From positions 8,208 through 72,207 of the IMG/VR virus record IMGVR_UViG_3300020050_015145: a DNA stretch of 64,000 bases; one strand, given 5' to 3'. The notes under the pieces are model-generated. The model saw nothing but the letters and a program-made list of their open reading frames with translations, was not told where the DNA came from and searched no databases. Position numbers and translations under genes: made by a program. Below, in pieces: positions 1 to 13,063 of the stretch (position 1 is the stretch's first letter; each line of letters starts with the position of its first letter). The stretch comes from a virus (Duplodnaviria; Caudoviricetes).

Positions 1-210
1 GTTTCTGATTTTGGTGTGATATTCTCCCGAAAAGCTGTATTGAATATCGTCCTCGTACTTCTTTATTACTTTGTCGATTTTCAGTACCGCGCTTGACAAT
101 AGTTCATCAGCTTTCAGCGTGGCGTATTCTTCCATGTATTGCGCCAAATCGTCAATAGAAACCACATGGTCTTGAATATTTTTACTTTCTAAAAATTCGT
201 TAACGTTCAT
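1..210 (-). CDS. hypothetical protein, 3'-truncated by window edge
   Basis: Manual translation MNVNEFLESKNIQDHVVSIDDLAQYMEEYATLK... from ATG at 210, open to position 1. Confidence 0.5.
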   Translation of the reverse strand, partial: MNVNEFLESKNIQDHVVSIDDLAQYMEEYATLKADELLSSAVLKIDKVIKKYEDDIQYSFSGEYHTKIRN

Positions 211-309
211 CGTTTTGTTGGTTGAGATGTGTAAAATTTTGTTGAAGCAAACGTTTCTGGAAACCCATGTTGACTAATCGCATTTGATACATCCGCAAAT
301 GAGCCCTCA

Positions 310-501
310 TCAATCACCATTGTTCATTGTTAGTAGGGCATATTTCCCCCTATACTGCCCAGTAAATGGCAAACGAAACTGCCGAAGATCAGACAGTGAA
401 GAAACTAACGATAAATTTATCGTATCAATTAGAATTTCATTTTTTAAGTCATCCGCACAAATGTCCTCTGACTTTTTAAAGTAATGAAGTTTGTAAAACA
501 T
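310..501 (-). CDS. hypothetical protein; may continue by frameshift to about 207
   Basis: 63-aa ORF; an adjacent frame continues VIDEGSFADVSNAISQHGFPETF... Confidence 0.45.
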   Translation of the reverse strand: MFYKLHYFKKSEDICADDLKNEILIDTINLSLVSSLSDLRQFRLPFTGQYRGKYALLTMNNGD

Positions 502-534
502 GATTTTTTAATATTTGTAAGATTCAATGCTTCT

Positions 535-801
535 TTAAAAAGGGCAATATTCATTTTTGATTTTGATTAAATGCGGCCTTAAAAACTTTAAAGAGTAAAA
601 CTTTCCAGCAATACAATAGCCTATACTCCCCTTTTGATATACTTTCTTTATTTCGCGTCCAGTCTTACAATTAAAGCACTTTTTACAAGTTGTGAATTTG
701 TAATAAGGCGCAAAATCTATCTCGTATTTAAGGGTGTAAGTAATTGATATTGTGGTCATTTCCCCATATTTAAGTTTCGTCAATCCACTCGTTATGTGCA
801 A
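535..801 (-). CDS. hypothetical phage protein (true start possibly ATG at 759)
   Basis: ORF co-oriented with neighbours; CxxC-x2-C motif; 5' end overlaps the attC-like half-site. Confidence 0.55.
   Translation of the reverse strand: MHITSGLTKLKYGEMTTISITYTLKYEIDFAPYYKFTTCKKCFNCKTGREIKKVYQKGSIGYCIAGKFYSLKFLRPHLIKIKNEYCPF
772..799 (-). repeat. attC-like half-site (R'' plus left arm only)
   Basis: Minus strand GCACATAAC-GAGTG-GATTGACGAAAC; R'' is complementary (8/9) to the R' GTTATGTGT that opens the radical SAM cassette. Confidence 0.55.
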
Positions 802-819
802 TTTTATTTTTCATTTTTT

Positions 820-1770
820 TTACCCTCCCAAAAAATGATTTAATGATTTTCTATTCGGGTTATATTCGTAATCTTCCCAACTACACGAATTGAAGATTAT
901 CCTATTGTTTACATATCTTGTGTATGATTTTTGATACTTGTCTGACTTATTGTAAGGCATCACAAAAGGTTTGCATCCTAATTCCCTTAAAAATTCAACT
1001 CTGTAATAGTCTTGTTCTGGAGTTGTATCATAGCCAATTAAGACAAAGAATTGCATATTTTGACAAGGTATTCCCCATTTGTTACATCGTTCAATTCCTC
1101 TTATTATTACTCTTTCATCTTTGAACTGATCCCAAGCAAAAGTTAAATACTTCTTATTGAATTTAGAGTTTGAGTAATTAACTTTTGCTAATAATTCGGC
1201 TTGTCTATCTGAAAGTATGCGAATATTTAAACCTTGAACAAAACACACTTTTAATTTTAACTCTGCAATCCTTTCTAAATTAGACTGCCAATTTGTGCCA
1301 CCAAAAAAATCATTATCTAACAACATCAAATTTTTACCGCCTGATGGGTTGGTAAGTAGCTCGTCAATAGTGTTATAATTCTTTGGCTTTCCCTCCTTTG
1401 TTGGCACACAACAGAATGAACAGCTAAAACGACATCCTTTCATTGAAAATCCATAATGAAAAGGAGTGTTTGGGTATATTTCCCAATCCATTGTAGCAGC
1501 TTCAATTTCAGCAGGTAGTTTATTATAGAAATCTATTCCAGTTCCGCCAATCACCATATTATCGGGTATTTGTGGCATTTCTGAAAACTTAAATATTTTA
1601 CTTGCATAAATTTTATCGTATTGATTTGCAAATAAAATTCCCTCATACCAACTTACATCATCGCCAATAGATTTGTGATACCCACTAATCTTCATTAGTG
1701 CTATGTTTGGAAATTGAACGCCTTGATATTCCGTTCCATCAACTTGATATATTCCTATTCGTGCCATCAA
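820..1770 (-). CDS. radical SAM family protein
   Basis: GCRFSCSFC (CxxxCxxC) motif; FPNIALMKIS N-terminus; LLDNDF, GLNIR and FVLIGY barrel motifs. Confidence 0.85.
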   Translation of the reverse strand: MMARIGIYQVDGTEYQGVQFPNIALMKISGYHKSIGDDVSWYEGILFANQYDKIYASKIFKFSEMPQIPDNMVIGGTGIDFYNKLPAEIEAATMDWEIYPNTPFHYGFSMKGCRFSCSFCCVPTKEGKPKNYNTIDELLTNPSGGKNLMLLDNDFFGGTNWQSNLERIAELKLKVCFVQGLNIRILSDRQAELLAKVNYSNSKFNKKYLTFAWDQFKDERVIIRGIERCNKWGIPCQNMQFFVLIGYDTTPEQDYYRVEFLRELGCKPFVMPYNKSDKYQKSYTRYVNNRIIFNSCSWEDYEYNPNRKSLNHFLGG

Positions 1771-1821
1771 TGATTTAATGATTTAATTGCCCACGCACAA
1801 AAAATGAAAAAGAAAACAGAC

Positions 1822-1953
1822 ACATAACAGCACATTGCCAAAAGTGGCGATGTAGTGCTAAAATCAAGTGTAGTGCTTCTAATTTTCATTTGTGCTATGT
1901 TCAAAATTTGTACTTCTAATTCGCCACCTTCGGCAATCTGCAAAACGTTATGT
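1822..1953 (-). repeat. complete attC-like site (132 bp)
   Basis: ACATAAC-GTTTT-GCAGATTGCCGAAGGTGGCGA...TCGCCACTTTTGGCAATGTGC-T-GTTATGT imperfect palindrome; upstream stop codon abuts R''. Confidence 0.7.
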
Positions 1954-2298
1954 TTAATTGCTCGTTCCTCGCAACTCCGCTTCGCTAAACATAACACAGT
2001 ATTTGCGATAATAATTTAAAACCTCTGAGCGTAACCATTTCTCAGCAAAGTTTTTTAATTCATCTACTGTGTCGCCAAAGCCACTATACATTACCCTGTT
2101 TTTGTATCGTATCATTAAAGTAAGTCCACAATTATTTGGCTTTATATCATCTCTAATACTTTTACTTCCTTTATCATAAATACCATCACAATCGTAACGT
2201 ATATCAAATTCATACGCTCCTACTGTGGCTTTTGCTGTGGCATAATCAAGACCAAAAAACTTTGCTTGTTCTACCCAATTATTAATTTTTGTTTCCAT
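1954..2298 (-). CDS. hypothetical protein
   Basis: 114-aa ORF lying between two attC-like elements. Confidence 0.7.
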   Translation of the reverse strand: METKINNWVEQAKFFGLDYATAKATVGAYEFDIRYDCDGIYDKGSKSIRDDIKPNNCGLTLMIRYKNRVMYSGFGDTVDELKNFAEKWLRSEVLNYYRKYCVMFSEAELRGTSN

Positions 2299-2325
2299 AT
2301 TAAATTCTCGTTAAGGTTTTAAATT

Positions 2326-2354
2326 ACTACGCAAATACTGATACCGTTAGTGGC
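2326..2354 (-). repeat. attC-like half-site (R'' plus left arm only)
   Basis: GCCACTAAC-GGTAT-CAGTATTTGCGTAG; R'' is an exact complement of the R' GTTAGTGGC at 2737-2745. Confidence 0.6.
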
Positions 2355-2399
2355 AACCGTAGGACACCCGACACCGAGCATCCTACGAACCACAAAAAA

Positions 2400-2678
2400 T
2401 TAAATCCTTGTATTGCCTTCTTCAAACGCTTCGGCAGGTGAAAATGATTTGTAGCCATCTTTGTAAACTACATAATAGCCACCTACTTGTGGTTTGTGCT
2501 TATGTAAATAATCTACTTCAACTCTAAAAGGTGCATAACCTTCTTCTTCGGGAGTAATAATTGCACTTCCATCGCTTTCACGATTTTCACCTTCTCCATC
2601 TCTTACAATGGATTTAATTTTTAAAGCCCATACTTCTTTATGGCTTCTGTACTTTGGCATTTCTACTGATACACTCAT
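2400..2678 (-). CDS. small conserved phage protein (GYYVVYKDGYKSFSPAEAFEEG family)
   Basis: C-terminal motif I recognise as common in phages and often fused to DUF2829. Confidence 0.75.
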   Translation of the reverse strand: MSVSVEMPKYRSHKEVWALKIKSIVRDGEGENRESDGSAIITPEEEGYAPFRVEVDYLHKHKPQVGGYYVVYKDGYKSFSPAEAFEEGNTRI

Positions 2679-2738
2679 ATTGTTTTTTTGTGGGTTTTAT
2701 AACTCCGCCCAGAAGTTTTATCGTGAGAAAACGGCAGC

Positions 2739-2822
2739 CACTAACACGGGTTTGGCAAAATGGCTTTCCGACACACAAGCCAACGCACAAAAGCCACTTC
2801 GCCAAGCCCGAAAACGTTACCC
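2739..2822 (-). repeat. complete attC-like site (84 bp)
   Basis: GGGTAAC-GTTTT-CGGGCTTGGCGAAGTGGCTTT...AAAGCCATTTTGCCAAACCCG-T-GTTAGTG; same architecture as 1822-1953. Confidence 0.7.
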
Positions 2823-2878
2823 GCCACACCTTCCCACCCTCTCCCCGCAATTTTTACATTTAACCCATCGCTTGCTTG

Positions 2879-4618
2879 TCACTCTCGTTCCAAACCCGCA
2901 CTTCGGACACATACCCGCCCCAACGCCTCGGCCCATACTTTCATTTGCCTTGGTACCACACTGTTTCCGATAAATTTCTTTTGGTCGGTCTGCGTACCTT
3001 TCAAGACATAACCGGCTGGAAACCCCTGAATAAGCAAAAGCTCCTTTACCATCAGCATCCGCATATAAATATCCGCAATGCCCGCCGCCCGCATAAACTG
3101 CTTGATTTTTACCATGGCCTCGCTGTCGGTGGAATTAATTTCCCAATAAGGCGAACCCGTGGCCAGCGTAACCATACCAATAGGCGCTTTGTCCTGACGG
3201 GCAATAATAACTGGGCTGGGCACTTCTAAGCTGTGCGTTGCGCCTCCGTGATTAGTCGTCACCAAATAATGATGGTGGTCCGTCACACGGTTGCCCGTGA
3301 GTAGAGTAGGAGCGGGTTCATCCAATGATTTCGGTAAGTTGCTGTGCTGATTGGTCATCAAATAACTGGAGCTTACCAAGCTAAACCTATCTTTGGTGGA
3401 CAATGCTCCGCAGGGAACATCGGTACTGTGCGCCTCTTTTTCGGTGCCGTTGTATTTTAACAAAAACTCAGGGCTTACAATCGCGTGGCGGTTCTCAGTC
3501 GTCACCGTCAAACACGGTTCGTCCATTCCTCTCAAACGATTGTCATTGCTTCCTGAATAATACGTCATCACAAACGGTTCGGGCGTTACAAGCGACATTT
3601 TACTTTGTGTTGTAATCGTAGAGGCTGGATTGTCAATAGCCATAACCCGACAATCATCATTGCCCGAAAACTGACTGCTTAAAAACGGCTCCACACTTGC
3701 CAACGAATGACTATCCGTCGTGGTCATGGCACCCGCAGGCACGTCCAATGCAACACACTTGCCTTCCGGATCTCCTGAATAATGTTTCTGCAAAAACTCC
3801 TTATCCCCCTTCACCACGTGCTTTATCAGGCCCGCAAAAATCCGCTTCAGCGTCTTTTCAACCAACGGTATTTTTCGGGTAAAAATAGATTCCCCTTTCT
3901 CCGAAAGGTCCAAAACCTCCCGTACCGGCATCCATTTTTTCAACTTCTCGTTATACATCGTAGAGGCTTTCGGGGTTTTTGCGTGTGTCGGCTCAGGCCA
4001 TGCCACAGGCATTCCATTTTTGGAAAACATAGCATAGTACCTAAGCCTCGATGTATAAGCCCCGTAATCCGCTGCGTTCAATAGCCGATGCGAATAACAA
4101 TAGCCCAACTCCTCAATGTCCCGCGTCCAGCGCACGTACTCCCGCCCTTTTTGTCGGCTAATAGGCTTCCCTTTGTCGTCCAGCGGCCCCCACGACATAA
4201 ATTCCCGTACGTTTTCAACCGTAAAATAATCAGGGCTCAACGCCTTAATATACATCGGCATAAACTCCGCCAAACTGCGGCTGTCTCCGTCCCGAGGCTT
4301 ACCACCCTTGGCGTTACTGAAGTTGGTACATTCCAAACTCGCATGAAGCACCACCAACACTCTACGCCCTATACGTTGCAATTTCTCCCGTTCTACCTTT
4401 GCCAATTCGGCTACTTTCTTCACTACGGCCATATCCCGAATGTCTTCCGTAAAATGATGCGTGTCGGGATGGTTGGCCGCGTGGCTTTCAATGGCTTTGG
4501 CATCGTGATTAACCCCTGCCAGTACCCGAAATTCAACACCTGGTACAGATGCCTGTTCAAACCCTTCGGGCACGCCTCCGGCTCCACAAAATAAATCTAT
4601 GATTAAAATAGTTGTCAT
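2879..4618 (-). CDS. DNA (cytosine-5)-methyltransferase
   Basis: DLFCGAGG (motif I), SLECTNFS (catalytic Cys), ENV, RLR, IGNSV motifs; long repeat-containing variable region. Confidence 0.92.
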   Translation of the reverse strand: MTTILIIDLFCGAGGVPEGFEQASVPGVEFRVLAGVNHDAKAIESHAANHPDTHHFTEDIRDMAVVKKVAELAKVEREKLQRIGRRVLVVLHASLECTNFSNAKGGKPRDGDSRSLAEFMPMYIKALSPDYFTVENVREFMSWGPLDDKGKPISRQKGREYVRWTRDIEELGYCYSHRLLNAADYGAYTSRLRYYAMFSKNGMPVAWPEPTHAKTPKASTMYNEKLKKWMPVREVLDLSEKGESIFTRKIPLVEKTLKRIFAGLIKHVVKGDKEFLQKHYSGDPEGKCVALDVPAGAMTTTDSHSLASVEPFLSSQFSGNDDCRVMAIDNPASTITTQSKMSLVTPEPFVMTYYSGSNDNRLRGMDEPCLTVTTENRHAIVSPEFLLKYNGTEKEAHSTDVPCGALSTKDRFSLVSSSYLMTNQHSNLPKSLDEPAPTLLTGNRVTDHHHYLVTTNHGGATHSLEVPSPVIIARQDKAPIGMVTLATGSPYWEINSTDSEAMVKIKQFMRAAGIADIYMRMLMVKELLLIQGFPAGYVLKGTQTDQKKFIGNSVVPRQMKVWAEALGRVCVRSAGLERE

Positions 4619-4630
4619 CTTTATTTTTGG

Positions 4631-4924
4631 TTACACAATAAAACTTACCAAACGAAATTCAATTTTGTGCTGACATTCCCCTTTTTCGTTTGGCTCAAAA
4701 CGGGAGACGGGCTGGTGAGAGTAATGCACGGGAATCAGATTGGGAGGGGCTTCGCCGGTTATTCTAAGTTCTAACCTTTCAATACTTTTGGTTGACTCCG
4801 GAACATTTACAAACCGCATACACCTCTCTTTGTGCGGGCAAGACCGGTTGTTGCACCGGCTCACGTCATCAGGCAGTGCTTCCATCCTTAAAAAAGTCAG
4901 TTGGCTTATTTCCCGCCATGGCAA
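4631..4924 (-). CDS. hypothetical Cys-rich phage protein
   Basis: DVSRCNNRSCPHKERCMRF...GECQH. Confidence 0.6.
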   Translation of the reverse strand: MPWREISQLTFLRMEALPDDVSRCNNRSCPHKERCMRFVNVPESTKSIERLELRITGEAPPNLIPVHYSHQPVSRFEPNEKGECQHKIEFRLVSFIV

Positions 4925-5255
4925 AACCTATGAATCGCCCCAGTTCAATAGAAAGTCCGTGATGCTTACAAAAGATGCCGCATAAATTCCGCATTTTCCG
5001 ACTGCTGCTCACCTGTTCTTTTTGGGCCTGAAACAATCGGTCGTTTTCGGCCAACGTGCGTTTTAGCTCAATTTGCCCGTGTTTAACTTCCGCTTTCAGT
5101 ATTTCAATTTCGCGACACTTTCTTTTTTCAAATTCTTTGGTTTGCTCGGTAAGCATATCCAGCCTTTCTGACAGTGTAGCACAGTAGCGAAGCAATAAAT
5201 TGACCTTGTTGGCATCCGGCAACTGGTCGAATGTGATGGGAGGAAGTAGATTCAT
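4869..5255 (-). CDS. hypothetical coiled-coil protein
   Basis: 128-aa ORF, start overlaps stop of upstream gene. Confidence 0.6.
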   Translation of the reverse strand: MNLLPPITFDQLPDANKVNLLLRYCATLSERLDMLTEQTKEFEKRKCREIEILKAEVKHGQIELKRTLAENDRLFQAQKEQVSSSRKMRNLCGIFCKHHGLSIELGRFIGFAMAGNKPTDFFKDGSTA

Positions 5256-5809
5256 AATGCTTTTTTGAGTTTAGCGTGTAATGCCTCTAACCATAGGCAT
5301 TCTCTGTTTTTCTTGGTCACAATAAAACCCCAAGGCTCACTGATAGACTTGAATTCTTCTTCAACAAACTCTTTGTCGTAACTATAATCGTCAATCAGGT
5401 AGTAATCAAGGCGTTTAATAAACGAATAGAAGTTATCAACAAAAAAGTGTTCTGATGGGCATTCCGCGCATTCGTTTTGAAAGCTATTCAGCTTTTCCCG
5501 CATATCTGCCTGAAAATCCAAATTCTTATACCATGGCAAAATAGCCTCTCTGATATGTTTGCGAATGGCCGAAAATGTTCTTTTTACATCTACTTCAGTA
5601 CAGCTTGCCGAACCAAGTAATTTATTTGCAAAATAATCTACATTGATTTGGCAAAGAAAGCTTCGTAATGGCATACCCATTGCACCCCAATACATTGAAT
5701 AGTTATGTCCGTAATCACTGATTGTGATTTTACCCTGACCATTCCCCATATCTTCAAGGAAAATATCAGCACTCTCAATTTTGATTCGGTCGGGAGCGAT
5801 TGCGTTCAT
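5252..5809 (-). CDS. hypothetical phage protein
   Basis: 185-aa ORF, GKITISDYG...YWGAMG motif. Confidence 0.7.
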   Translation of the reverse strand: MNAIAPDRIKIESADIFLEDMGNGQGKITISDYGHNYSMYWGAMGMPLRSFLCQINVDYFANKLLGSASCTEVDVKRTFSAIRKHIREAILPWYKNLDFQADMREKLNSFQNECAECPSEHFFVDNFYSFIKRLDYYLIDDYSYDKEFVEEEFKSISEPWGFIVTKKNRECLWLEALHAKLKKAL

Positions 5810-5837
5810 TTTGGTTAGATTAGAAATTGAAAAATAA

Positions 5838-5856
5838 CCCCGCCATTACAGCGGGG
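5838..5856. terminator. hairpin, putative intrinsic terminator
   Basis: CCCCGC-N7-GCGGGG in the intergenic gap; T-rich tail on the minus strand. Confidence 0.5.
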
Positions 5857-5876
5857 CGGTAGGGTAAAGGGTAGCA

Positions 5877-6497
5877 CTATTTCTTTTTACGTTTCGGCTT
5901 CAGTTCTCCCCCGTCAAAATCAGCTTCATCGCCGAAAATATCATCCAGCTCCGATGGCACTCCCGCATCTTCAGCCGTCCTTTCCAACTCATTGGCTGCT
6001 TTCTCATCCTCCAGCGTCAACTGCAATTCTTCGGCACTCATCGGACGGGTATCCACCACAATGTTGGTGAGAGGATTGTAATACTCAAAAATCTTCTTTT
6101 CCATGTTTTTGCGACGCGGGAAAAACTCTCTGATTTCTTTTTGGGACATTTTGCGCGTTTCAATCAGGTCAGAGTTTTCGGGATGATAGTATTCAAATTC
6201 CAGTGTATTGCCGTTGATTTTTTTGATGGCTTCCACCTGTTCAAATTTATACCCATCGTTCAGGTAGTTGCCTGTAATGTTCATTTCTGCCTCTTTGGCT
6301 TCAATGCGACTTTTCCAAGTGGACATGGCGGACTTTTTGTCCAGTTCCATCTGGTTTTTGTCCTTGCGTTGGGTGTTCAGCTCCGCACCTAAGTTGATCA
6401 ACTCTTTATCATCGAATACGTGTTTGTACTCCACGCGTTCGGTTTTTTCGGGAAACGTAAACTGAACAACTTCTTCCTGTATGTCTTGATTTTGCAT
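5877..6497 (-). CDS. hypothetical phage protein with internal duplication
   Basis: FEYYHPENSDLIETRKMS / FEYYNPLTNIVVDTRPMS repeat; acidic C-terminus. Confidence 0.75.
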   Translation of the reverse strand: MQNQDIQEEVVQFTFPEKTERVEYKHVFDDKELINLGAELNTQRKDKNQMELDKKSAMSTWKSRIEAKEAEMNITGNYLNDGYKFEQVEAIKKINGNTLEFEYYHPENSDLIETRKMSQKEIREFFPRRKNMEKKIFEYYNPLTNIVVDTRPMSAEELQLTLEDEKAANELERTAEDAGVPSELDDIFGDEADFDGGELKPKRKKK

Positions 6498-10979: not shown

Positions 10980-11831
10980 ATGCCTTACTTAAATGAAAGT
11001 GAAATGCTTAGAAAAATCAAATTGCGCCGCTTCCTGCGTGAATTCGCGGGAGGAAACCAGAAGAAATTCGCGGACCTTACCGGTCTTCAACAATCGCAGG
11101 TAAGCCAACTCGTGGGCGACCGCAGGGAGGTGACCGATAAAATGTGGATTAAAATACTTGGAAGCCTGAATGTACCCGACACAGCTCTGCCCGAAGATTA
11201 CGATATGCTTCAGCAGGAGTTGGAGGTGAGCAAAAAAAGCGTTCACCAGGGAAGGCAACTGGAAGAGTACATGCGCAAACACAACATAAAGAACATTGAC
11301 GTTGCCAAAATACTGGGTGTAAGCCCCCCGATGGTAAGCATATACAAATCTTCCGAGCAGTTTCGCCCCGATGTAGCTGAAAAAATTAACAAATTCCTGA
11401 CTGTCAACGAAGACCCGGTGCTGTACGGAGCGTCTTCCGGTACACCCGACTCGCTGCCCTTGATTTCCGACAGCGTTCGCAACCTCACAGACTTATCCAA
11501 ATGCCCGCGTTATGAAATTGTCCAAAAAACCGAGTATGACCTCAAAGACGCGGTTGTTATCAAGGTAGATACTGATTTTATGGAGCCCGTTTTTAAAAAA
11601 GACTCCGAATTGCTGGCCATTGCCGTGCCGTCTGCCAAATACAAATACCATACAGGTTTGACCGCCATCCACTACGCCGACATGGTAGCCATTGGTGAAG
11701 TAATGTCCAATGATTTGCTGGACAAAGGATTTATTACGCTTCAGCGGGGAAAAGGTGCCGTACTTCGCGTTTTGGGAGAGGATATTCAGCATTTGTGGCA
11801 TATTGCACTGGGCCTTAACGTGAAGTTTTAA
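10980..11831 (+). CDS. CI-like repressor with two HTH domains and degenerate S24 domain
   Basis: HTH1 NQKKFADLTGLQQSQVSQL, HTH2 KNIDVAKILGVSPPMVSIY; TDFMEP in place of GDSMEP. Confidence 0.8.
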   Translation: MPYLNESEMLRKIKLRRFLREFAGGNQKKFADLTGLQQSQVSQLVGDRREVTDKMWIKILGSLNVPDTALPEDYDMLQQELEVSKKSVHQGRQLEEYMRKHNIKNIDVAKILGVSPPMVSIYKSSEQFRPDVAEKINKFLTVNEDPVLYGASSGTPDSLPLISDSVRNLTDLSKCPRYEIVQKTEYDLKDAVVIKVDTDFMEPVFKKDSELLAIAVPSAKYKYHTGLTAIHYADMVAIGEVMSNDLLDKGFITLQRGKGAVLRVLGEDIQHLWHIALGLNVKF

Positions 11832-13063
11832 TGGTTACCTTTCGTGTTGAACTTGCTTCGGCCCCGAATCGGGACGGGCAGTTTCCGGTACGTTTGCGCA
11901 TTACCGCCGACCGCCGACACAAACGTATCAGCTTGGGCTTCGCCATTGCAAAAAAAGACCTGAACCCCAAAGCTACCTTGGATAAGGCGAATTGGATACG
12001 CGCCGGCCATCCGCAGCAATTGGCCTATAACAATCGAATTCGGGAAAAATGTGAGGCAATTATCAATGCGGTTTCTGAGTTATCCAAAGAGACCGAACCT
12101 ACCCTTGAAGCAGTGGAGCACGCATTGCTCAATGGCAACGACCAGTCTTTCATTGCTTATTACCGAAAGCAACTGGAGTATGTGGGCATAAAGAATTCGC
12201 TGGAAACGGCGGAAAACTACGGCGTACCGCTGAATAAAATCATCAAGCAGTTGCAGGAGAAAGGGAAAAGCGATTTAACCTTTCGGGAACTTACCCTGGC
12301 GTGGCTGAAAAGCTTTGAGACTTACATGATTCAAATCCCCAATTCAAAAAACACGGTAAGCAAACAATTGGGGTTTGTCAAGACCATCGTCGGTGCGGCA
12401 ATAAAAGACAAGCTGCTGAGTCCTCTTAACAACCCGTTTCAGGATTATAAATTTTCTTTTGAAGAAACGGAGCGCGAAAAACTAAGCCCGGAAGAAGTTA
12501 AGCAATTGGAGGATATGCCGCTGGACCCAACCTACCGCGTTTGTCACGCCCGCGACATTTTTCTTTTTATGTATTACACCCACGGGATGCGCATTGGTGA
12601 TGCGTTGTTTTTAAGGGTCAGCAACATTCACAAAGAGCCCGAGGCGTGGCGTTGCAGATACCAAATGCACAAAACCGACTCGCGGCGTAATGTGAAGCTC
12701 ACGGAAAAAGCCCGTTTGATCGTGGAGAAATACGCCGAAAACAAAGGCCCGAATGACTTTTTATTTCCTTTTGTGGAGCTGGGGAAAAACTACAACGACG
12801 AAAGAACTTACAAAGATACAAAATCAGCCAAGACATCCATCGTAAACAAGGGACTTGGCAAAATAAAGGAAAGGCTGGGCTGGGAGAAGAATTTGACCTG
12901 CCACATTGCCCGTCATACCTTTGCCGATGCGGCCCGGGTAAAAGGTGCCAATACCTATACCATTTCCAAAGCGCTGGGTCACGCCCGATTGTCCACCACC
13001 GAAAAATACCTGAAATCCTTTGACCAAAATGCAGTGGATGAAATTAACGATATATTTGAGTAG
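11831..13063 (+). CDS. int: tyrosine recombinase (phage integrase, Bacteroidota type)
   Basis: GMRIGD, HIARHTFA, LGHARLSTTEKY catalytic motifs; N-terminal arm-binding domain PVRLRIT...RISLG. Confidence 0.95.
   Translation: MVTFRVELASAPNRDGQFPVRLRITADRRHKRISLGFAIAKKDLNPKATLDKANWIRAGHPQQLAYNNRIREKCEAIINAVSELSKETEPTLEAVEHALLNGNDQSFIAYYRKQLEYVGIKNSLETAENYGVPLNKIIKQLQEKGKSDLTFRELTLAWLKSFETYMIQIPNSKNTVSKQLGFVKTIVGAAIKDKLLSPLNNPFQDYKFSFEETEREKLSPEEVKQLEDMPLDPTYRVCHARDIFLFMYYTHGMRIGDALFLRVSNIHKEPEAWRCRYQMHKTDSRRNVKLTEKARLIVEKYAENKGPNDFLFPFVELGKNYNDERTYKDTKSAKTSIVNKGLGKIKERLGWEKNLTCHIARHTFADAARVKGANTYTISKALGHARLSTTEKYLKSFDQNAVDEINDIFE

Follow-up and report, generated by a model that had tools for sequence, protein, structure and literature searches.

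The DNA analysed here, a window of 64,000 nt, comprises bases 8208-72207 of the virus record IMGVR_UViG_3300020050_015145, a complete genome of 72,207 bp with 121-bp direct terminal repeats. Every gene in window 1-6000 lies on the minus strand, and between 790 and 2830 these genes are punctuated by two intact hairpin sites (A and B) and two decayed ones (remnants 1 and 2), with the gene-strand form ATTGC-nnn-TAAC followed by GTTTT-stem-loop-stem-T and then GTTA-nnn. The sites delimit three clear one-gene cassettes, possibly with a fourth below position 791, in what is probably a recombinase-less cassette array belonging to an integron-like, IntI-independent system of Bacteroidota and their phages. 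A preliminary description made from the letters of the window had already reported the four elements, the complementarity between the sequence that opens a unit (R') and the one that closes it (R''), a stop codon adjoining R'' and the AT-richness of the block; all of these sequence facts, coordinates included, were reproduced.

On the minus strand, site A (2737-2828) consists of an R''-like sequence (GGCGGGTAAC), a GTTTT bulge (2815→2811), a stem of ~20 bp enclosing a 13-nt loop, a T and the R' sequence GTTAGTGGC (2745→2737); its TAAC core lies at 2819→2816 and the hairpin as a whole at 2819→2742. Site B (1819-1959, minus strand) repeats this order with R'' AAACATAAC, GTTTT, a stem of ~21 bp, an A/T-rich loop of ~70 nt that contains an ATG, a T and R' GTTATGTGT, the TAAC core being at 1950→1947, GTTATGTG at 1828→1821 and the hairpin at 1950→1825. 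The outer cores of the two sites read GGGTAAC/GTTAGTG and ACATAAC/GTTATGT, keeping the purine/pyrimidine pattern of RYYYAAC and GTTRRRY only partly, and the TAA stop (1956-1954) of the upstream gene of 114 amino acids (aa) adjoins ACATAAC. When folded as DNA, A reached -19.1 kcal/mol (z -3.6) on the minus strand versus -14.6 on the plus strand, and B -24.5 kcal/mol (z -4.1) versus -15.7 (z -0.85). The R' of A, GTTAGTGGC (2745→2737), pairs over 9 bp with GCCACTAAC (2354→2346) at the other end of the first cassette, and GTTATGTG (1828→1821) pairs over 8 bp with CACATAAC (798→791) across the third, within a ~30-nt imperfect inverted repeat.

The decayed sites lie at 2322-2358 (remnant 1) and 768-804 (remnant 2), both on the minus strand. 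At remnant 1 the R'' is GGTTGCCACTAAC and the left arm behind it (GGTATCAGTATTTGCGTAGT) is degenerate; its TAACGGTATCAGTATTTGCGTAGT agrees with the left arm of A at 16/24 positions in an ungapped comparison. At remnant 2 the R'' is AAATTGCACATAAC, the degenerate left arm is GAGTGGATTGACGAA, and TAACGAGTGGATTGACGAA could be aligned to the corresponding arm of B once gaps were allowed. Only these two remnants match the R'' consensus TTGCNNNTAACG exactly. They had been called left-arm-only remnants, a label that is right in that neither has a right arm but undersells them, since they are more than bare cores and their degenerate left arms are recognisable. A search downstream of remnant 1 found no right-arm partner, and for remnant 2 the only match had three mismatches, lay >6 kb off and had no GTTA core after it; the idea that the genes sit inside the loop of a larger hairpin was dropped, neither remnant having a proper right-arm partner downstream. 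A profile of the four arms revealed no further copies in the 72-kb genome, in which the intact element occurs only twice, and an Rfam 15 cmscan of 500-3200 gave chance-level matches only, the best being to a microRNA model that scored 20.6 bits where the gathering threshold is 90. Rfam contains no model for attC.

Cassette limits were placed at the putative G↓TT crossovers on the plus strand (the arrow marks the point of exchange). Cassette 1 (2347-2816, minus strand) contains hairpin A, a gene of 92 aa (gene92, 2400-2678, minus strand; phrog_11049, function unknown), a GC-rich 3' hairpin (2358-2392) and R'' GGTTGCCACTAAC (2358→2346). Cassette 2 (1948-2346, minus strand) contains a decayed leader, the 114-aa orphan gene (gene114, 1954-2298) and R'' AAACATAAC, and cassette 3 (792-1947, minus strand) contains hairpin B, a 40-codon open reading frame (ORF), a gene for a radical-SAM protein (820-1767, minus strand; 315 aa, phrog_9298) and R'' TTGCACATAAC. 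All three have homologues elsewhere that end at the cores. Cassette 3 recurs at 86-90% identity in contigs L271, L272 and L273, where homology covers exactly window 1951 to 790/787, one TAAC core to the next, amid different and unrelated flanks each time; L380 has a 93%-identical copy of window 2349→1947 whose surroundings on either side are unrelated, the breakpoints lying in the two TAAC cores; and in L300 and L302 the right boundary of cassette 1 is at TAAC 2349-2346. The elements had been proposed to be integron-like cassette boundaries, and gene boundaries of related phages that miss G↓TT had been named as evidence to the contrary; the breakpoints in L271, L272, L273 and L380 do coincide with G↓TT and, together with the pairing of the R' that opens a unit with the R'' that closes it, support the proposal. 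Identical copies of hairpin A were found in L089, L099, L106, L109, L130 and L131 with differing flanks.

The 40-codon ORF of cassette 3 (1767-1889, minus strand) uses the loop ATG of B as its start, reads on across the right arm and R', and ends in TGATG, which overlaps the radical-SAM start. Its peptide is Cys-rich and hydrophobic (...CCYVSVFFFIFCAWAI...), and the frame is open in L271, L272 and L273 although the hairpin of L271 differs in sequence; the product could function as a coupled leader peptide or as a peptide on which the radical-SAM enzyme acts. An exact 16-mer, AAATCATTAAATCATT (gene strand), occurs both before the radical-SAM start (1769-1784) and near the end of that gene (834-849), and this leader also stands behind the A-type hairpins of L089 and L131. 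A stretch of 35 nt in the loop of B (1879-1913) is 80% identical to the coding sequence of the radical-SAM N-terminus (1685-1719), which could be chance in A/T-rich DNA or the trace of an older junction. In cassette 1, the GC-rich hairpin just before the R'' of gene92 (GTAGGATGCTCGG...GTCCTAC; 2358-2392, minus strand) folds at -13.4 kcal/mol, is not followed by a T-run and is kept, with changes, in L300 and L302.

The sites of the window belong to a family of hairpins with a covarying stem, matching cassette ends and homology breakpoints in the cores. An exact 18-base signature (TAACGTTTTNNNNNTTGSCGAAG) was present in at least 119 IMG/VR viral contigs and at least 120 genome contigs, against a chance expectation of a handful by a rough size-based estimate, and the genome contigs among the matches listed were nearly all from Bacteroidota (Flavobacteriales, Chitinophagales, Cytophagales, Sphingobacteriales and Saprospiraceae). 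The cultured Flavobacterium phages vB_FspS_mumin, filifjonk and tooticki carry the signature at the start of a DNA methyltransferase gene. TAACG[GT]TTT sites numbered 244 in the fetched viral loci versus ~16 expected, and a looser detector that combined TAACG[GT]TTT with a closing stem yielded 177 complete elements in viral and 136 in bacterial loci, with 303 distinct hairpins overall. These are 49-186 nt long (modes at 78, 88, 120 and 126), compared with about 57-141 nt for attC palindromes, and share a left flank of ATTGC-nnn-TAAC and a right flank of GTTA-nnn-GCAGT, in which TAAC and GTTA are invariant and the three core-adjacent bases are free. Across the 303 hairpins, 20 consecutive stem positions were 89% paired versus 32-53% when the register was shifted, and most positions showed more than one type of pair, usually several. 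RNAalifold, applied to 34 diverse copies with B as the first row, predicted 24 pairs including the TAAC/GTTA stem base, 16 of them with compensatory changes. The stem is asymmetric by virtue of a 5-nt versus 1-nt bulge and of conserved stem positions that read C.A (position 5) or G.T (positions 11 and 14), alike in the viral and bacterial sets, and not by the classical G and T extrahelical bases.

The pairing of cassette ends is a property of the family. We compared the bases after the GTTA of one hairpin with those before the TAAC of the next, scoring complementarity of at least 4 nt beyond the core. In viral loci 34/80 adjacent pairs matched, as opposed to 9/176 for the two sides of the same hairpin and 3.9% of random pairs, and nearly all viral pairs <550 nt apart obeyed the rule; in bacterial contigs the figure was 30/54 against 11/132 in the control. 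Inverted ends that match within a unit and differ between units are expected if the unit was once a circle or a single strand that closes the base of its hairpin. Flanks tell a similar story, as identical hairpins in different contigs shared the downstream flank alone 23 times and the upstream flank alone 0 times, and shared neither flank in 164/192 pairs. This pattern points to a main crossover on the TAAC-G side of the hairpin, i.e. ...AAAAC-G↓TTA on the plus strand, which is the integron position, and some exchange appears to take place at the other core too.

Variants of the site were also encountered. In L274 (650-900 and 1780-1960) a homologue of the radical-SAM gene (87% aa identity) is flanked by a different class of hairpin, with outer cores of the form ...GCATAA-T...hairpin...GCATAAC-T-GTTATGCG; this class obeys the rule of matching ends as well, which suggests that there is more than one family of sites. 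L063 (minus strand, oriented position 11619) contains a minimal site, TAACGTTTTAGCTGCTGTTA, with both cores and the bulge but next to nothing of the hairpin, which looks like the outcome of a stem-loop deletion. By their N-terminal sequences alone, cassettes in the bacterial loci L253 and L260 appear to carry defence-like cargo (an ATPase with an OLD/ABC-like N-terminus and a protein with a DUF262-like N-terminus, IPDYQRGYAW), and many other bacterial cassettes resemble secreted proteins or lipoproteins.

The only tyrosine recombinase of the phage is a 410-aa protein with an N-terminal arm (11831-13063, plus strand), which scored 69.7 bits against NF040815 and 36.8-44.5 bits against the IntI model TIGR02249 (cut-off 265); the earlier observation that the array comes with no integron integrase holds for the window genome at 36.8 bits. 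This integrase is not of the family found beside arrays elsewhere, and its arm-type extension indicates that the phage is probably temperate. Among the virus records that carry the hairpins, six encode a tyrosine recombinase; the six proteins are mutually alike, 265-294 aa long and, in three phage records, encoded within ~1.5 kb of the array. Their best family is the XerA-like NF040815 (166-206 bits, cut-off 220), followed by XerC/XerD and TIGR02249. Against the last of these the array-linked proteins reached 133-168 bits, in two stretches that skip model positions ~180-238 (the IntI insert); they have a full catalytic domain and scores under every curated cut-off. A profile built from the six reached at least 200 bits in 15/120 bacterial 8-kb loci, where, with ~1-3 such Xer-like genes per genome, about one locus would be expected by chance (a rough estimate). 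In all 14 loci that contain both, the Xer-like gene stands at the same end of the array, upstream in top-strand terms, i.e. with the G↓TTA crossover 3' in the site. We take the 265-294-aa Xer-like recombinase as the candidate enzyme, with moderate support, its link to the sites being one of position and enrichment only.

Gene orientation relative to the hairpin differs between phages and bacteria and is fixed within each. In every rule-obeying phage cassette (34/34), and likewise in the window, the gene lies on the TAAC-GTTTT strand with the hairpin 5' of it, whereas in 29/30 rule-obeying bacterial cassettes the gene is on the opposite strand and the site is 3' of it, as in the classical design. 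An invertible-cassette (shufflon) arrangement was rejected on account of this fixed orientation. The suggestion that phages draw on a cassette pool of their own is supported by the same counts. The phage units are not classical in design, their hairpin being 5' of the gene and often supplying its start codon. In 73/177 phage hairpins the loop contains an ATG from which an ORF runs through the right arm into a long gene, and this happens in two frames (...FAKPVL... and ...PFCQTRV...), which points to selection on the DNA and not on the peptide. Many of the genes that start in this way look like DNA methyltransferases by their N-terminal motifs, and annotation of these phages should allow for the many genes that begin within a hairpin loop. 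The phage loop thus probably serves expression too, often by holding the downstream start codon. The bacterial genes are antisense to the strand that folds better, from which we argue that the conserved wobble pairs would serve folded DNA and not mRNA.

These loop ATGs are also an argument for reading the hairpins as RNA-level regulatory modules (5' leader, translation start or promoter) in the manner of the promoter-early stem-loops of T4-type phages, with genes shuffled by ordinary homologous recombination between the arms and no dedicated recombinase. G.U pairs are workable in mRNA as well, the arms are conserved over at least 23 nt, which is enough for phage recombinases, breakpoints occur on either side of the hairpin, and most carriers are without a recombinase. 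We nevertheless consider this account unlikely. Homologous recombination does not make matched variable triplets at cassette ends, and the breakpoints examined fall in the 4-bp cores and not in the arms. With the bacterial genes on the other strand, the hairpin there is neither a 5' leader nor the better-folding RNA, and the enrichment of an Xer-like recombinase at a fixed array end also speaks against it. A role in phage expression is, moreover, compatible with one in recombination.

A second alternative is that the elements are classical integron attC sites in a captured cluster of attC sites lacking an integron integrase (CALIN), moved by a host IntI as the preliminary description supposed. 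The AAC...GTT cores, the imperfect palindrome, the length of 78-126 nt and the R''/R' end rule would all fit, and CALINs have been reported in 17 phages, among them one in the Polaribacter phage P12002L that was described with two putative methyltransferases (Qi et al., 2023; PMC9892861). One of its sites, P12002L_attC1, as given in the primer table of that study, forms a hairpin of the same architecture as those of the window; our strict detector found no element in P12002L, and it was on reading the intergenic regions that the same architecture, with other spacers, became apparent. This site was called an attC by HattCI and not by Infernal, and was the sole one of six for which no IntI1 recombinants were verified (PMC9892861). 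Integrons are, besides, very rare to almost absent in Bacteroidetes according to IntegronFinder 2.0, and classical integron integrases are rare there (PMC9024848). The RYYY/RRRY pattern is kept only in part, the genes of phage cassettes are reversed, and the only recombinases tied to the arrays are Xer-like proteins that skip the IntI insert region and stay below the TIGR02249 cut-off. We regard this alternative as very improbable; the initial integron-like interpretation largely stands, but its host IntI is not supported.

Strand-specific folding, the conserved TAAC tetranucleotide at breakpoints and the many identical hairpins with unrelated flanks on both sides (164/192 pairs) would also be compatible with ends or targets of an IS200/IS605-type single-strand transposon or a miniature inverted-repeat transposable element (MITE), moved by a hairpin-recognising HUH/Y1 transposase that cuts beside a tetranucleotide. 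A Y1 transposase (PF01797) was found in 0/50 carrier records, matched inverted cassette ends are foreign to IS200/IS605 and the arrays are associated with a tyrosine recombinase instead, leaving this account only a very small chance of being correct. Ordinary intrinsic terminators or chance palindromes, a reading to which the intergenic position of the hairpins lends itself, can practically be dismissed: a terminator and promoter scan was empty at A and B, each hairpin is followed by GTTA... and not by a T-run, and a stem of ~20 bp with a conserved bulge and mismatches covaries over hundreds of copies.

The cassette array that we favour would work as follows. Each unit is taken to be bounded by TAAC cores on the gene strand, equivalent to G↓TTA on the plus strand, and its complementary ends, GTTA-nnn-GCAGT and ATTGC-n'n'n'-TAAC, would pair to complete the hairpin at its base, forming a perfect 'R box' when the cassette is a circle or a single strand. 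The strand that folds would be the gene-sense strand in phages (the equivalent of the 'bottom' strand of bacterial arrays), favoured by the two conserved G.T pairs and the 5-nt versus 1-nt bulge, and a tyrosine recombinase would exchange strands at TAA↓C, the hairpin usually travelling with the downstream gene. As the phage of the window does not encode the Xer-like enzyme, its array would be static unless the enzyme were supplied by the host or a co-infecting phage, as in a CALIN.

Several observations weigh against this mechanism. A tyrosine recombinase of any kind was found in only 6/50 carrier virus records, and in 2/26 of those at least 90% complete. About half of adjacent hairpin pairs, mostly those >1 kb apart, break the end-matching rule, and pairs that share the downstream flank only have different hairpins (31) about as often as the same one (27). 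The seed pattern of the detector fixes part of the left arm, and the conservation of that arm is partly due to detection. At the level of single cassettes, L302 has the same gene92 and R' from GTTA 2745 behind a different hairpin, with the break at the other core, and the gene114 unit is cleanly delimited from TAAC to TAAC in L380 despite having no intact hairpin. Lastly, metagenome contig L424 matches window 8356→4368 at 99.9% identity and then lacks everything down to ~223, a presence/absence difference that is not bounded by cores and runs from inside the methyltransferase gene next to the array to ~window 223.

Beyond the window, the findings bear on whether Bacteroidota and their phages possess a second kind of integron, independent of IntI. 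A small Xer-like recombinase without the IntI insert would here move one-gene cassettes through its own hairpin site; host arrays would be classical in build, and phages would keep a separate, reversed pool in which the loop provides the 5' leader and start codon and the cargo is often an anti-restriction methyltransferase, most phages doing without the enzyme and relying on hosts or co-infecting phages. For this wider proposal we regard the case as evenly poised.

The array is bordered by a gene for a 579-aa C5 cytosine DNA methyltransferase (2879-4618, minus strand), whose 3' flank provides the R''-like GGCGGGTAAC of site A. An R' matching GGCGGGTAAC was looked for upstream and not found, and the methylase can therefore not be counted as a proven cassette. 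Weak DNA matches were to methylases of Bacteroides and Porphyromonas phages, and relatives of the phage in IMG/VR were limited to methylase relatives of at most 45% identity without the element; relatives of a neighbouring 187-aa protein were sought and none was found. At the other end of the block, two small genes (535-765, 76 aa, and 310-501, 63 aa; together 310-765, minus strand) belong to no family, have a GC content of 30-33% and may form a fourth cassette with an undefined end. GC content is 30-39% across window ~294-2794, compared with 44.6% for the genome and 51% for the following 500 bases. The block missing from L424 amounts to 4.1 kb and comprises the rest of the methylase, all cassettes and the two small genes; what remains of the methylase (~118 aa; L424:3700-4200) is 84 N-terminal residues fused to the last conserved motif (...GNSVVPQ...), directly followed by a homologue of the gene at window 1-210. 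The cassette block hence sits in a variable region, and we count its low GC content and its absence from L424 as pointing to a foreign origin.

Integrons are seen as a largely proteobacterial means of stockpiling and shuffling genes, and the 'CALINs' of phages have been regarded as fragments that strayed from bacterial integrons. The window is one member of a family present in hundreds of Bacteroidota phage and genome contigs, with its own type of site and probably its own Xer-like enzyme, and full-text literature searches found no description of an Xer-like cassette system in Bacteroidota. If the proposal is true, it would account for the way in which flavobacterial and related phages trade methyltransferases and other accessory genes, one precise single-gene unit at a time. 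It would represent a second, independent or early-diverged example of cassette recombination at hairpin sites, and it would offer a defined pair of substrate and enzyme for testing.

Like the sites of integrons and CALINs, the present ones are imperfect palindromes whose outer cores (...AAC and GTT...) are conserved, whose spacer is bulged and whose top varies. The arrays resemble integron arrays in their one-gene units, in the complementarity of opening R' and closing R'' and in the putative G↓TT crossover (on the plus strand here), and as in integrons the better-folding strand is opposite the genes in the bacterial arrays of this family. Further parallels are the recombinase at one fixed array end, the many arrays without a recombinase and, with phage CALINs, the DNA methyltransferases that are common phage cargo. 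Unlike attC sites, those of this family have the constant frame of ATTGC-nnn-TAAC and GTTA-nnn-GCAGT and keep the RYYYAAC and GTTRRRY purine/pyrimidine pattern only in part; where attC has its classical extrahelical bases, they have a bulge of 5 nt versus 1 nt together with C.A and G.T positions that are conserved. Unlike in classical integrons, the linked recombinase is without the IntI insert and a published relative of the site was not recombined by IntI1, and unlike in classical cassettes the phage gene is reversed, with the hairpin 5' of it and often a start codon in the loop. T4-type phages offer another comparison in the promoter-early stem-loops (PeSLs) that Arbiol et al. are said to have described in 2010 as direct repeats used by homologous recombination. 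PeSLs reportedly share with the present hairpins that repeated stem-loops flank small accessory genes in a hyperplastic early region and mark module boundaries, and reportedly differ in having neither matched inverted module ends nor a link to a tyrosine recombinase, nor being shared with host chromosomes. The array-linked proteins themselves are akin to Xer-type 'simple' recombinases (XerC/XerD/XerA) and to IntI in their full catalytic domain, with NF040815 ('tyrosine recombinase/integron integrase') as best match, and depart from Xer recombinases in being encoded beside cassette arrays and not acting at a chromosomal dif site.

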